A stretch of DNA of 64,000 nt. Origin: Candidatus Saccharimonadota bacterium (GTDB taxonomy: Bacteria; Patescibacteriota; Saccharimonadia; Saccharimonadales; Saccharimonadaceae). Positions 4,838 through 58,920 of this stretch are shown in pieces. The notes under the pieces were generated by a model, which worked only from the letters and a program-made list of their open reading frames with translations, ran no database searches and was not told where the DNA came from. The translations under genes were made by a program, and so were the position numbers. The stretch lies in contig JAFRJN010000004.1 in the NCBI GenBank assembly GCA_017432225.1, positions 42,201-106,200 on the forward strand. The letters are read 5' to 3'. Position 1 is the stretch's first letter. Every line of letters starts with the position of its first letter.

Positions 4838-7048
4838 ATGTCAGCAGAAGAAGTGCTGAAAAATAGCGAAAGGTCAGCCACCACAAATCGTCAGGGTCCG
4901 GATTCCCAGATTATTAATCATGTGACGGGTGAGCATGGGCGAACTGTCCTTCAAAATCTTAAAAAGCATAAGTCGCTTGGGGTAATTGGACTAGTGACTT
5001 TGGTGCTATTAACTCTAGTAGTATTATTTTCCTTTGGAAATTTAATTCCGGCGGCGATTCTAGACCGATTGATTGAGGCAACTGATGTACAATATGCGGA
5101 TGCAGTAGAGAGTAAGTTTCTAGTCTTTGAGCAAGCATTAGAGAATAGCAATGTACCAGAAAACACTATTAAGAGATTAGCTTCTAACGGCATAACCGTG
5201 GATGGCAGCTCTTTAATCTTTAAAGGTGAAACGATTGCGGCGGGGGATTTCATTAATAAAGTCCATAGCAATACCGAACTTTATAATGCTTTTAATGCGG
5301 CAACTTATGATCGAGCAGCCTATTATTATGATGAATCGGCAGAGGCGGTGTTTAAAAAGATTGGGACTTCAAGAAATAACTATTCGTCGAGTTCGGATTT
5401 TAACACAGTAATGAGCAAACTGGTGGGGGATGGTAGTAATATAGATATTTCTAATGTAGGACTATTTGAAAAAGAGGACGAAGAGACTGGCGAGAAATAC
5501 ATGGAATACGACACGGTAAATGGTGGGGCGAGTTCTAAATCGCCGGCGGCGGAATTTATTAGTAAAGTTTCCAAGAATACCTTGGCAGAGGATGGGCTCA
5601 CAGCGACTTTGTATGCTACAGATGCACTAAACACAGCTGATACAATTTCAAAAGAGCAGAAGGCTAGTATTTTCTTTATGGCTTTAATGGAAAACATCAG
5701 TAAAATGAAAGCGGGGGAGGGGAACACGGCAAAAATCAACGAAGCAATGAATTTTCTTTATGATGTAAAAGAGTCTAGTGTGGTAGATGTAAATACGGGT
5801 GAAACTATTACCACGACCGGTAGCGCTCTAGAATCGCCGAGTCTATATGCAATTTTGGCAGGTTCGCAAATTGACGGAAATAAGGTAACTAATTATGCTT
5901 CGGATAGGGTACTTAAAACCGTAGAAAATAAAGTAGGGGTAGATACGGTAGGAGAAGAAGTGAAAGAAGGGAATGTTACATCTACTTCCACTAAGCTCCG
6001 GGGGATGATTGGAAGATTTTTGGAGTTTTTTGGCGAGGAGGCAGATGAGGATACCATATCTAGTGTAACCGAGATAATTAATAGCTCGATGATGGAAAAT
6101 AGCTTTGACTCGATTAATGGTATTTACGCAGGAGAGGTACTAGTGGAGGGGGCGGTGAATGTAGGAAAAGAACTCGCAAAAGCTAGTGGGGCGACGGCGG
6201 GTGATGCAGAGGCCACAAAGTCTTATGCAATACTAAACGATACTATTCTAGCGCTTGATGCGGAGGCAGACCGAATGAATCGGAGCCCATTTGATATTAC
6301 CTCCAAAAATACTTTCCTTGGTTCGATTATTTATCGTCTAGGTGTAAGTGTAGCGAGTAGTAGGTTCAGCAGCACTTTTAACACTATTGGTTCAACAATG
6401 GGAAATATTATTGGAACTTTTGATAATATATTTTCATCATCAACTAAAGCAGAGGATGCTGGGACACAATACCTTGCAAACTTTGGTAATTGTGAAACCC
6501 TCGGCTCGGTAGGCGCGGTGGGGTCAGTGGGGTGCTCGGAAGTTGCAAGTTTTGATACTTCTACACTTAACGATACTTTCCATGATGAAGGTTTTATCTC
6601 TTTTGTAGAAGAAAATACTACTATAGATGAATCTGGCACTAGAGTGATAAAGAAAGATTCTAAATTGGCAGATTTTATTAAATATAATAATGAGAGAATT
6701 ACGCCAATAGGAGTGATGGATGGAGGGATTTTAAACTCTATTACAAGTGGCACTTCTAAACTTTCGTTTGTGTCAGATATTATTTCGATGGTAAAAATTT
6801 GGCTGGGAGCGAGCGACGAAGAAAAAAATATGGCGACCGGAAAAAGTTTTGTCAATTCTAGCTCCAATAGTGAATGGGAGACTTATAAATACGCCCAGAG
6901 ATATGTGTCGCTGGCGCGGGCGACGGAAGCACTTCGTCAATACGATGGAGATGTGACAGCTTACGCAGATCTAAAGTTTTTCGAAGGAACTGAAAATCCA
7001 GTAGTAGCGTTCCTTGAAAATTATTATAACGAAATAGCTAATAATTAA
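4838..7048 (+). CDS. Hypothetical membrane-anchored protein with a large extracytoplasmic region
   Basis: Long ORF. One TM near residues 55-80, then about 650 aa of Ser/Thr/Asn/Glu-rich sequence with no motif I recognise. Start placed at ATG 4838, 9 nt after a TATAAT box. Confidence 0.6.
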   Translation: MSAEEVLKNSERSATTNRQGPDSQIINHVTGEHGRTVLQNLKKHKSLGVIGLVTLVLLTLVVLFSFGNLIPAAILDRLIEATDVQYADAVESKFLVFEQALENSNVPENTIKRLASNGITVDGSSLIFKGETIAAGDFINKVHSNTELYNAFNAATYDRAAYYYDESAEAVFKKIGTSRNNYSSSSDFNTVMSKLVGDGSNIDISNVGLFEKEDEETGEKYMEYDTVNGGASSKSPAAEFISKVSKNTLAEDGLTATLYATDALNTADTISKEQKASIFFMALMENISKMKAGEGNTAKINEAMNFLYDVKESSVVDVNTGETITTTGSALESPSLYAILAGSQIDGNKVTNYASDRVLKTVENKVGVDTVGEEVKEGNVTSTSTKLRGMIGRFLEFFGEEADEDTISSVTEIINSSMMENSFDSINGIYAGEVLVEGAVNVGKELAKASGATAGDAEATKSYAILNDTILALDAEADRMNRSPFDITSKNTFLGSIIYRLGVSVASSRFSSTFNTIGSTMGNIIGTFDNIFSSSTKAEDAGTQYLANFGNCETLGSVGAVGSVGCSEVASFDTSTLNDTFHDEGFISFVEENTTIDESGTRVIKKDSKLADFIKYNNERITPIGVMDGGILNSITSGTSKLSFVSDIISMVKIWLGASDEEKNMATGKSFVNSSSNSEWETYKYAQRYVSLARATEALRQYDGDVTAYADLKFFEGTENPVVAFLENYYNEIANN

Positions 7049-48109: not shown

Positions 48110-48198
<89 letters not shown>

Positions 48199-48262
48199 TT
48201 TAAAATTGCCTGAACTAGAGGGCATTTTTTTAGTTGGGATTCGAATCTCGCTATGCTCGATG

Positions 48263-48283
48263 CGAATCCTGCCCCTTCCGCCA
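48263..48283 (+). pseudogene. Duplicated 3' end of tRNA-Ser(TGA), 21-nt exact copy
   Basis: cgaatcctgccccttccgcca at 48263-48283 is identical to 48178-48198. A second T-arm-like relic, gggattcgaatctcgc, lies at 48236-48251. Confidence 0.7.
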
Positions 48284-48284
48284 A

Positions 48285-48308
48285 AATCACCAATCTTGGT
48301 GATTTTTT
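48285..48308 (+). terminator. Rho-independent terminator before the pyrG promoter
   Basis: aatcaccaa-tc-ttggtgatt followed by a T run. The TGATATAAT box of pyrG starts at 48308. Confidence 0.65.
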
Positions 48309-48322
48309 GATATAATGGAGGT

Positions 48323-58514: not shown

Positions 58515-58590
58515 TGGTCTGGGATACCAGACTTGAACTGGCGACCTCACGCCCCCCAGGCGTGCGCGCTACCAACTGCGCCAATCCCAG
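58515..58590 (-). tRNA. tRNA-Pro(GGG), CCA encoded
   Basis: C1-G72 acceptor CTGGGAT/ATCCCAG, anticodon stem CACGC/GCGTG with loop CTGGGGG. Confidence 0.9.
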
Positions 58591-58671: not shown

Positions 58672-58747
58672 ATAATGTTAAAACGGACTTGAACCGACGA
58701 CCTCGGCGTCCCGAACGCCGCGACGCTTTTAACTGCGCCACACCCTG
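58672..58747 (-). pseudogene. Truncated tRNA-Pro(CGG)-like copy, lacking the 3' acceptor strand and with an altered D-loop
   Basis: CAGGGTGTGGCGCAGTTAAAAGCGTCGCGGCGTTCGGGACGCCGAGGTCGTCGGTTCAAGTCCG then TTTTAACATTAT. Matches the downstream tRNA except GGT to AAA in the D-loop, one inserted T, and a diverged 3' end. Confidence 0.8.
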
Positions 58748-58754
58748 TAAAAAA

Positions 58755-58830
58755 TGGTCTGGGTGACAGGACTTGAACCTGCGACCTCGACTTCCCAAAA
58801 GTCGCGCGCTACCAACTGTGCTACACCCAG
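58755..58830 (-). tRNA. tRNA-Pro(TGG), CCA encoded
   Basis: Acceptor CTGGGTG/CACCCAG, anticodon stem CGACT/AGTCG with loop TTTGGGA. Confidence 0.9.
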
Positions 58831-58907
58831 ATATTAAACTAAAGTACTTATTCCTGGGGACCTCGACTTCCCAAAAGTCGCGACGCTTATAACTGTGCTA
58901 CACCCAG
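58831..58907 (-). pseudogene. Truncated tRNA-Pro(TGG)-like copy, with degenerate T-arm and 3' end and an altered D-loop
   Basis: CTGGGTGTAGCACAGTTATAAGCGTCGCGACTTTTGGGAAGTCGAGGTC then CCCAGGAATAAGTACTTTAGTTTAATAT. Matches the downstream tRNA through the variable loop except GGT to ATA and one inserted T. Confidence 0.8.
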
Positions 58908-58920
58908 ATGTTCTATTTAT

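Follow-up and report, generated by a model that had tools for sequence, protein, structure and literature searches.

Truncated tRNA-Pro copies with a shared D-arm lesion in a Saccharibacteria tRNA cluster: conservation in related lineages and possible retention as leader and spacer RNA

Introduction

tRNA pseudogenes are rare in bacteria and are presumed to be transient junk, and genome-reduced, host-dependent phyla usually purge spare DNA. The rtT RNA (RF00391) of the E. coli tyrT operon consists of partial tRNA repeats that are co-transcribed and processed to a small RNA. The 3′ETS(leuZ) of E. coli glyW-cysT-leuZ is a 3′ trailer that acts as a sponge by base-pairing with Hfq-dependent small RNAs (Lalaouna et al. 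2015, as summarised in PMC8383071). The subject of this paper is a tRNA-Pro cluster in a 64,000-nucleotide (nt) stretch of a Candidatus Saccharimonadota genome (contig JAFRJN010000004.1, positions 42,201–106,200; termed the window). Two of its three intact tRNA-Pro genes are each preceded by a truncated copy with the anticodon of that gene, termed pseudo-TGG and pseudo-CGG, and both copies carry the same alteration of the D arm, termed the lesion.

In a phylum of this kind, one specific broken form of a tRNA is apparently retained in lineages that diverged deeply. The literature was searched and no described precedent or equivalent was found. The pseudo-copies are read here as tandem-duplication relics held by purifying selection as structured leader and spacer RNA, a reading that is given about an even chance of being correct.

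Results

Two pseudo-copies with the same lesion

The features of the two copies, and of the intact gene downstream of each, are as follows.

58935–58505, minus strand: tRNA-Pro cluster region, five units (pseudo-TGG, TGG, pseudo-CGG, CGG, GGG)
From C58907, minus strand: pseudo-tRNA-Pro(TGG) unit, 77 nt (alignment A1)
58859–58907, minus strand: conserved core of pseudo-TGG, tRNA positions 1–48 plus one inserted T (alignment A1)
58883–58890, minus strand: D-arm lesion of pseudo-TGG, GGT to ATA (58890–58888) and an inserted T (58883)
58831–58858, minus strand: 3′ tail of pseudo-TGG, CCCAGGAATAAGTACTTTAGTTTAATAT, derived by divergence from the T arm and 3′ acceptor strand
58830–58755, minus strand: tRNA-Pro(TGG), intact (ARAGORN; Rfam 61.8 bits)
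From C58747, minus strand: pseudo-tRNA-Pro(CGG) unit, 76 nt (alignment A1)
58684–58747, minus strand: conserved core of pseudo-CGG, tRNA positions 1–63 plus one inserted T, with the T arm kept
58723–58730, minus strand: D-arm lesion of pseudo-CGG, GGT to AAA (58730–58728) and an inserted T (58723)
58672–58683, minus strand: tail of pseudo-CGG, TTTTAACATTAT, in place of the 3′ acceptor strand (from the sequence)
58671–58596, minus strand: tRNA-Pro(CGG), intact (ARAGORN; Rfam 65 bits), followed by TTTAG

The core of pseudo-TGG contains the 5′ acceptor strand, the altered D arm, the anticodon arm and the variable region. Outside the lesion it is identical to its neighbour at 48 of 48 positions (1–48), and pseudo-CGG is identical to its own neighbour at 63 of 63 positions (1–63). 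BLAST gives 93.75% identity over 64 nt for the pseudo-CGG core and the real CGG gene. The real TGG and CGG genes differ at 8 of the first 48 nt (positions 2, 9, 12, 29, 31, 34, 39 and 41), and all 8 differences are reproduced in the corresponding pseudo-copy. In both copies G18G19U20 is changed to A-N-A and a T is inserted after G24. The lesion motif occurs 2 times in the window, with 0.00 occurrences expected by chance.

An earlier reading of the window (the sequence-only reading) had described the order promoter, pseudo-TGG, TGG, pseudo-CGG, CGG, GGG on the minus strand. The sequence, ARAGORN and alignment A1 agree with this order. The same alignment bears out its description of pseudo-copies that match their downstream neighbours, with the 8 differences mirrored and parallel D-loop and T changes. 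It had put the match at roughly the first 50 nt and stated that the 3′ acceptor strand is replaced. Pseudo-CGG, however, keeps the whole T arm, and only about its last 13 nt are replaced.

Distribution in related lineages

The syntenic locus was fetched from nine further lineages via AspS homologues, and a lesion-specific DNA pattern added one metagenome contig. For pseudo-TGG the sample covers five lineages that are independent of one another; for pseudo-CGG it covers two that are deeply separated, together with L137, a close relative of the window. The lineages are listed with their AspS identity to the window.

Window and L001–L006: AspS 100%; pseudo-TGG and pseudo-CGG present; reference arrangement
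L137: AspS 98%; pseudo-TGG and pseudo-CGG present; real CGG differs at pair 28:42
L136 (= L140): AspS 92%; pseudo-TGG present, pseudo-CGG absent; T-armless tail
L143: AspS 91%; pseudo-TGG present, pseudo-CGG absent; four private changes
L141: AspS 91%; pseudo-TGG present, pseudo-CGG absent; 5′ half of the T arm still visible
L144: AspS 90%; pseudo-TGG present, pseudo-CGG absent; 5′ half of the T arm still visible
L009: AspS 94%; pseudo-TGG as a remnant only, pseudo-CGG present; leader aligns to pseudo-TGG tails (P about 0.02)
L010: AspS 91%; both absent
L014: AspS 89%; both absent; a third Pro-like copy with scattered decay

Among named organisms, the best AspS matches all belong to Candidatus Saccharibacteria, and the genome seemingly comes from ruminant gastrointestinal metagenomes, judging by contig and sample names only. 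On a tree of aspS four-fold sites the pseudo-TGG carriers are interspersed among non-carriers. The simplest history is a single ancient origin with at least three losses (two lineages without the copy, one with a remnant), and pseudo-TGG evidently dates back to an ancestor shared by at least six of the lineages sampled. The sequence-only reading had taken absence or random degradation in close relatives, along with the lack of a stable RNA product, as a sign of recent neutral duplication. Absence is seen in L010 and L014, and pseudo-TGG is deleted in L009, but where the copies are present they are not randomly degraded.

Pseudo-CGG is limited to the clade of the window, L137 and L009. The counterpart spacer in L009, TATTTTTTAGCAACACAT, is homologous to the TGG–CGG spacer of L143, which is without pseudo-CGG. 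Thus pseudo-CGG sits at the original CGG position, directly after the ancestral spacer, and the altered member is therefore the upstream one of the tandem pair, as in pseudo-TGG. Pseudo-CGG arose later than pseudo-TGG, in one sub-clade, with the same lesion.

A unit length of 76–79 nt is kept in all lineages. The tail is therefore a T arm and 3′ acceptor strand that have been substituted out, and not the leftover of a large deletion. The T arm remnant increases from L141 and L144 to pseudo-CGG, in which the T arm is full.

The five-unit arrangement is found in L001–L006 (identical AspS) and in L137, which are separate samples apparently put together with different assemblers. This agreement of many independent assemblies excludes an assembly error at the repeat, a possibility that had been raised for this locus. 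A repeat assembly artefact had been considered together with another explanation, that the copies are attachment (att) site scars of a mobile element in the tRNA-Pro genes; taken together the two are hardly credible. tRNA genes are common integration targets, and the window does have a 21-nt copy of a tRNA-Ser(TGA) 3′ end. Integration, however, leaves 3′ tRNA fragments, and these mark the far end of an island. The fragments at this locus are 5′ ones, 12–33 nt ahead of the intact gene. No integrase is nearby, the flanks are aspS, a 224-aa gene and ftsH, and the 76–79 nt unit fits duplication of a whole gene in tandem. None of the IMG/VR viral contigs has this tRNA segment or the lesion, and similarity searches with phage DNA gave ordinary tRNA-Pro genes only.

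The tRNA-Ser copy is exact (T loop to CCA) and lies at 48263–48283 on the plus strand, 65 nt downstream of the gene at 48110–48198. In the surrounding region (48199–48310, plus strand) it stands between a T-arm-like fragment, upstream, and a terminator-like hairpin, downstream. Its appearance is that of a remnant of att type or of a duplication, and it retains the opposite tRNA end to that kept by the Pro pseudo-copies.

A strict lesion pattern over metagenome contigs gave one locus only, L136. A loose pattern (CAGTTWWWAGCGN{0,1}CGCGRC) over genome contigs gave 120 chance matches, none tRNA-like. A protein-database search with the spurious open reading frame across the cluster gave only unrelated open reading frames from tRNA arrays, and no lesion-specific peptides.

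Other differences between the lineages were noted. L014 has, at about 5480–5555 (minus strand), a third tRNA-Pro-like copy that abuts the CCA of tRNA-Pro(CGG) and is not called by ARAGORN. Its truncated 5′ end, 6-nt anticodon loop and mutated T arm represent ordinary scattered decay in the same clade. A gene of about 223 aa for an NYN-domain (PIN-like RNase) protein lies between aspS and the 224-aa gene in L138 (4792–5463), L140 (4903–5571) and L143 (4307–4978); it is absent at the window locus, and its presence is uncorrelated with that of the pseudo-copies. In L145 and L146 synteny is broken after a 211–221-aa gene, and in place of the tRNA cluster a unit of about 45 nt (CTCCTGGTGCGAAATCAATGGTTCACGAGAGACAGATAAAAAATC-like) is repeated three times in tandem.

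Rates of change

Four-fold divergence in aspS between carrier lineages is 0.49–0.62, and in the two genes that flank the cluster it is 0.46–0.71 (L144 left out). The high divergence of the flanks, again with L144 left out, argues against a recent transfer of the locus. The neighbor-joining (NJ) tree length among pseudo-TGG carriers is 2.58 substitutions per four-fold site.

Over this tree, a 54-nt block of pseudo-TGG (tRNA positions 1–48, the inserted T and CAGAG) has 4 substitutions, all in L143, vs about 139 expected. The core is identical in the window, L137, L136/L140, L141 and L144. The 4 sites of the lesion have one change (middle base T to C, in L143) vs 10.3 expected (Poisson P = 3.7e-4), i.e. 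the pseudo-TGG lesion reads ATA in four carrier lineages and ACA in L143, and the T insertion is found in all. The pseudo-CGG lesion is the same in the window, L009 and L137. Across all copies, the two outer As and the inserted T are fixed and the middle base is T, A or C. These counts, estimated from sequence comparison, show the 5′ block to evolve at least 30-fold slower than four-fold sites.

The adjoining sequences behave differently. The leader upstream of pseudo-TGG differs in sequence and length in every lineage, and pseudo-TGG tails show 53%–70% identity between deep lineages. In the T-armless forms, the tail shares 39%–48% identity with the corresponding part of the real tRNA. Evolution of the pseudo-TGG leader and tail looks near-neutral. 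The pseudo-CGG tail has 1 difference between the window and L009 (11 of 12 nt kept), with 49% of four-fold sites different. When the lesion and tail are taken together, 16 of the 17 pseudo-CGG sites that have no counterpart in the real tRNA are identical between these two, vs about 50% expected (binomial estimate about 2e-4).

A frozen 5′ block and lesion beside near-saturated flanks, together with exchange between paralogues (see below), sustain the earlier claim that the pattern is not neutral decay and requires concerted evolution or selection.

Two single nucleotide polymorphisms (SNPs) are found within the species: A/G at −3 of the pseudo-TGG leader (L002–L006), and G35A in the pseudo-CGG anticodon, CGG to CAG (L002–L005). 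In aspS, by comparison, the window and L002 agree at 261 four-fold sites.

Status of the copies as tRNAs

ARAGORN calls only the three intact genes in the cluster and neither pseudo-copy. The Rfam tRNA model (RF00005) does not match pseudo-TGG. It gives pseudo-CGG 20.8 bits vs a threshold of 29, in an alternative fold that is in a non-homologous register. In both copies the G18G19 of a functional tRNA is replaced (ATA/AAA), the 3′ acceptor strand is replaced and there is no CCA. Rfam scans matched no further family to the pseudo-copies. The identity to the neighbour (48/48 and 63/63) and the unit length of 76–79 nt are those of a tRNA pseudogene derived by duplication; the 54-nt 5′ block, however, does not decay as a neutral pseudogene would, and the 3′ tail alone behaves neutrally.

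The sequence-only reading had claimed that neither copy can form an acceptor stem, but pseudo-TGG in the window keeps a CCCAG that is complementary to its own 5′ strand. An explanation considered here is that the pseudo-copies are unusual working tRNA-like molecules: a T-armless pseudo-TGG closed by CTGGG/CCCAG and a D-armless mini-tRNA, pseudo-CGG, closed by GUUAAAA/UUUUAAC. RNAfold predicts these closing stems, and it is in this fold that the Rfam tRNA model fits pseudo-CGG (58676–58733, 20.8 bits, E = 0.16). That score is under the 29-bit threshold of Rfam, however, and the CCA end is absent. The CCCAG stem is missing in the 98% relative L137, which has CAGAG, and it is not significant when compared with shuffled sequences (P = 0.09 in the window, 0.17 in L137, 0.49 in L140). 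The D-loop/tail pairing of pseudo-CGG is not significant either (P = 0.06 and 0.27). In addition, the two models are without a common architecture, yet the lesion is common to both copies. The shuffle tests largely refute this explanation, which is very improbable.

Two other candidate identities were rejected. A split tRNA gene of the Nanoarchaeum type would call for a 3′ fragment, and no tRNA-Pro 3′ fragment was found elsewhere in the 64-kb window. Matches to YrlA/Y RNA-like (RF02553) are at 19.3–26.3 bits vs a threshold of 69, cross the junction between pseudo-copy and real gene, and are spurious.

RNA structure

RNAalifold, applied to the five distinct pseudo sequences, gives two hairpins: a D hairpin with a pair between G10 and the inserted U, and an anticodon helix lengthened by C25–G45. 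The L143 pseudo-TGG has four private changes, T6C, T19C, G28A and C42T. G28A and C42T turn G28:C42 of the pseudo anticodon stem into A28:U42, and the real tRNA 79 nt downstream keeps G:C. Four random substitutions would include a double change of this kind, with the pair preserved, at a probability of 0.015.

The L143 changes also bear on a proposal of the sequence-only reading, that the 5′ acceptor strand of the pseudo-copy pairs with the 3′ strand of the downstream tRNA in an alternative fold that tunes RNase P or 3′ processing. The two strands are perfectly complementary in the window, and the 5′ acceptor strand is conserved in four of the five lineages. Nearest-neighbour folding of the pseudo-TGG/TGG precursor puts the probability of this long-range pairing at about 1.0 for both the window and L140; for L144 it is 0.64 and for L141 0.44. 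In L143, however, T6C creates a C-A mismatch with the unchanged real 3′ strand and the predicted pairing falls to 0. The compensatory pair of L143 keeps the hairpin within the pseudo-copy and would mismatch a pseudo–real pairing. Reversion of the lesion in silico has no consistent effect on the pairing, and the real 5′ strand is both nearer to the 3′ strand and transcribed ahead of it. The folding model fails on the cloverleaf of the real tRNA alone, so its long-range preference is unreliable and the pairing test is weak in both directions. The proposal is not upheld by these results and is judged quite unlikely.

Four roles for the lesion itself were tried and rejected. An 8-bp extended D hairpin, formed via the T insertion in pseudo-CGG, is weakened by A9 in L009 and is poor in pseudo-TGG. 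As a −10 promoter (TTATAAG/TTAAAAG) the lesion has no suitably spaced −35 and no match in the promoter scan. The palindrome GTCGCGAC created by the T insertion is missing in pseudo-CGG and broken in L143. A guard against misfolding between pseudo-copy and real tRNA was tried by in silico reversion, which had no consistent effect.

Proposed mechanism

Transcription of the cluster is predicted from the following features.

58931–58921, minus strand: putative extended −10 promoter TGTGCTATAAT, read from the sequence
58908–58920, minus strand: leader ATAAATAGAACAT, 13 nt, from the −10 to pseudo-TGG; fast-evolving

A TGnTATAAT-type motif is found at the equivalent position in 8 of 8 aligned lineages (alignment A2). 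A consensus promoter scan did not call the TGTGCTATAAT promoter, because it is without a −35. Co-transcription, which the earlier reading had suggested from a single upstream promoter, is therefore putative.

The comparisons show that the copies originated by duplication, are old, are constrained and are dispensable. Each arose when a whole tRNA-Pro gene was duplicated in tandem, is the upstream one of the two, and has lost acceptor-stem formation. In the proposed mechanism, its first 49–64 nt would have been kept by purifying selection in a non-tRNA form, with the A-N-A D loop and a U after G24. From the single extended −10, the copies would be transcribed as the 5′ leader (pseudo-TGG) and an internal spacer (pseudo-CGG) of a poly-tRNA precursor. 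Each would fold alone, as a remodelled D hairpin (G10–inserted U) beside an extended anticodon stem-loop (C25–G45). Processing by RNase P or charging by ProRS as a tRNA would not be expected, because the acceptor stem and G18G19 are missing, and a by-product of about 80 nt may be released when RNase P cuts the downstream tRNA.

As to its use, the RNA may be a non-chargeable mimic of the anticodon arm that binds or titrates a factor that reads this arm (e.g. TrmD or an anticodon-directed nuclease), or it may have a role in the stability or processing of the precursor; this is a guess, and more probably wrong than right by a wide measure. Another suggestion is that the antisense strand of pseudo-TGG may be an upstream regulatory site of ftsH, but this leaves pseudo-CGG unexplained.

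Purifying selection and gene conversion

The favoured explanation, at somewhat better than even, is that purifying selection acts on the 5′ block, as RNA or as DNA. The main rival, a serious one although clearly less probable, is that the pseudo-copies are neutral relics of tandem duplication that owe their conservation to recurrent conversion from the invariant real tRNA and to survivorship of lesion-bearing copies. The lesion would be a heterology that ends conversion tracts, and copies without it would be quickly deleted because they are perfect direct repeats (at least 50 nt). The invariance of the real gene is clear: tRNA-Pro(TGG) (58755–58830, columns 185–260 of alignment A2) is 100% identical in 8 of 8 aligned lineages despite a four-fold divergence of about 50%–60%.

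A number of points weigh against purifying selection on a leader and spacer RNA, and several of them fit conversion. At position 9 the pseudo and the real CGG agree with each other, with A in L009 and G in the window. The mosaic TGG/CGG tRNAs of L139 and L143 likewise represent exchange between the Pro paralogues, and some of the conservation could thus stem from conversion by the real tRNA, which is invariant. Repeated loss of the copy (L010, L014) fits deletion between direct repeats, and the retention of the lesion could partly be survivorship. The element is dispensable, since L010 and L014 have lost it and most of it is deleted in L009, and the SNP in the pseudo-CGG anticodon argues against a strict need for a Pro anticodon. 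The rate tests equate the neutral rate with that of four-fold sites, and the NJ tree behind them is rough. On the side of structure, covariation is that of one pair in the one varying lineage, L143. In comparison with shuffles, closure of the copy by a stem of 5′ strand and tail reaches significance in L143 (0.0025) and L141 (0.02) only, and no conserved higher-order structure was seen beyond the two hairpins. Co-transcription of the pseudo-copies with the real tRNAs is presumed from the sequence, and a stable RNA product is likewise presumed.

Conversion is also compatible with the tolerated anticodon SNP in pseudo-CGG and with the 3′ ends of the conserved block, which vary (48 in the window type, about 58 in L141/L144, 63 in pseudo-CGG) and could be eroding edges of homology. 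As the only preserving force, however, it is strained: it would have to refresh a 17-nt block (positions 1–17) and a 28-nt block again and again in five lineages and never cross the 8-nt lesion that lies between the two. A tract that spans the lesion would erase it, and the lesion is present in every carrier. The 17-nt block of identity at the 5′ end is bounded by non-homology on one side and the lesion on the other, and its 5′ edge is uneroded in all lineages. Pseudo-specific sites beyond the reach of conversion, i.e. the lesion and 11 of 12 nt of the pseudo-CGG tail, are conserved as well. Survivorship leaves the frozen flanks of the lesion unexplained. Moreover, L143 retains its 4 private changes, including the compensatory pair (P = 0.015), and L137 retains a difference between pseudo-copy (G28:C42) and real gene (A28:T42); thus conversion is not frequent. 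The lesion of the younger pseudo-CGG is most simply explained as a patch copied from pseudo-TGG.

Further details of the mosaic genes were noted. The tRNA-Pro(CGG) mosaics of L139 (at the 3′ contig end) and L143 (5675–5750) have a TGG-type acceptor stem, CTGGGTG/CACCCAG. In L139 the anticodon stem is likewise of the TGG type, the anticodon is CGG and the T arm is of the CGG type. L137 has 7% four-fold divergence from the window, yet its real CGG gene has the A28:T42 allele of L010 and L014. This suggests a short imported or converted patch in that gene.

The remainder of the cluster and its surroundings

58748–58754, minus strand: spacer TTTTTTA, 7 nt, from tRNA-Pro(TGG) to pseudo-CGG (from the sequence)
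58590–58515, minus strand: tRNA-Pro(GGG), intact, final gene of the cluster (ARAGORN; Rfam 60.2 bits)

A terminator-like site (58532–58517) with a T run follows tRNA-Pro(GGG). This gene (58518–58590, minus strand) is not listed by a whole-window Rfam search at the gathering threshold, and a local search by E-value gives it 60.2 bits. The miss is an apparent loss at the speed filter, not biology. The intact tRNA-Pro(TGG) has an A12–C23 mismatch in its D stem.

The flanking genes in the window are aspS, the 224-aa gene, ftsH and an M1 aminopeptidase gene, and the order aspS, 224-aa gene, tRNA cluster, ftsH is conserved across relatives. GC skew is strongly positive throughout the window (1–64000; 0.14–0.33 per 4 kb, 39%–49% GC), and the window in its entirety seems to be on a single replication arm, in a genome of strong skew.

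Discussion

If selection is the true explanation, the locus would be a clear case of a tRNA duplicate reused as a cis-encoded structured RNA. It would also be a new type of functional tRNA-precursor spacer, beside 3′ETS(leuZ), and a testable handle on the way the candidate phyla radiation (CPR) handles tRNA-Pro: m1G37 modification, processing and possibly defence against anticodon nucleases. If the copies are junk maintained by conversion, they nonetheless provide a clean illustration, from nature, of concerted evolution by short tracts in the presence of a stable heterology.

The fullest statement of the preferred reading is tentative and stands a little short of even. It is that Saccharibacteria contain a tRNA-derived RNA element, of a kind not described before, that comprises the 5′ three-quarters of a tRNA and is made into a two-hairpin module by a fixed D-arm change. 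The element would have been selected as a leader or spacer of its parent operon for about one substitution per neutral site per lineage, and later copied onto a second isoacceptor, and would serve as a non-chargeable anticodon-arm mimic or a module for precursor processing.

Comparison with known systems

The closest described class is that of tRNA pseudogenes formed by tandem duplication and decay. The pseudo-copies resemble these in their origin from a whole gene, in the loss of the acceptor stem and of G18/G19, in a near-neutral 3′ part and in repeated loss. They differ in that the 5′ 49–64 nt, including the inactivating lesion, are essentially frozen over about 2.6 neutral substitutions per site. 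They differ also in that the same complex lesion is found in a second, later duplicate; the copy in L014 is a contrasting example of normal decay.

Like 3′ETS(leuZ), the pseudo-copies are non-tRNA segments of a polycistronic tRNA transcript, with putative release by tRNA processing and possible action in trans. Unlike the Saccharibacteria element, which is a tRNA-derived leader and spacer known from sequence alone, 3′ETS(leuZ) is a 3′ trailer without tRNA ancestry. The rtT RNA is similar in that a partial tRNA sequence is repeated inside a tRNA operon, but the rtT repeats are downstream and start with the 3′ end of tRNA-Tyr, and Rfam gives no match to rtT at this locus. From both of these RNAs the Saccharibacteria element presumably differs in its partners as well. 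YrlA/Y RNA-like RNAs and tmRNA share with the pseudo-copies the use of tRNA-derived or tRNA-mimicking hairpins for purposes other than decoding. Those RNAs mimic the acceptor/T-arm half of a tRNA, whereas the pseudo-copies retain the D and anticodon half.

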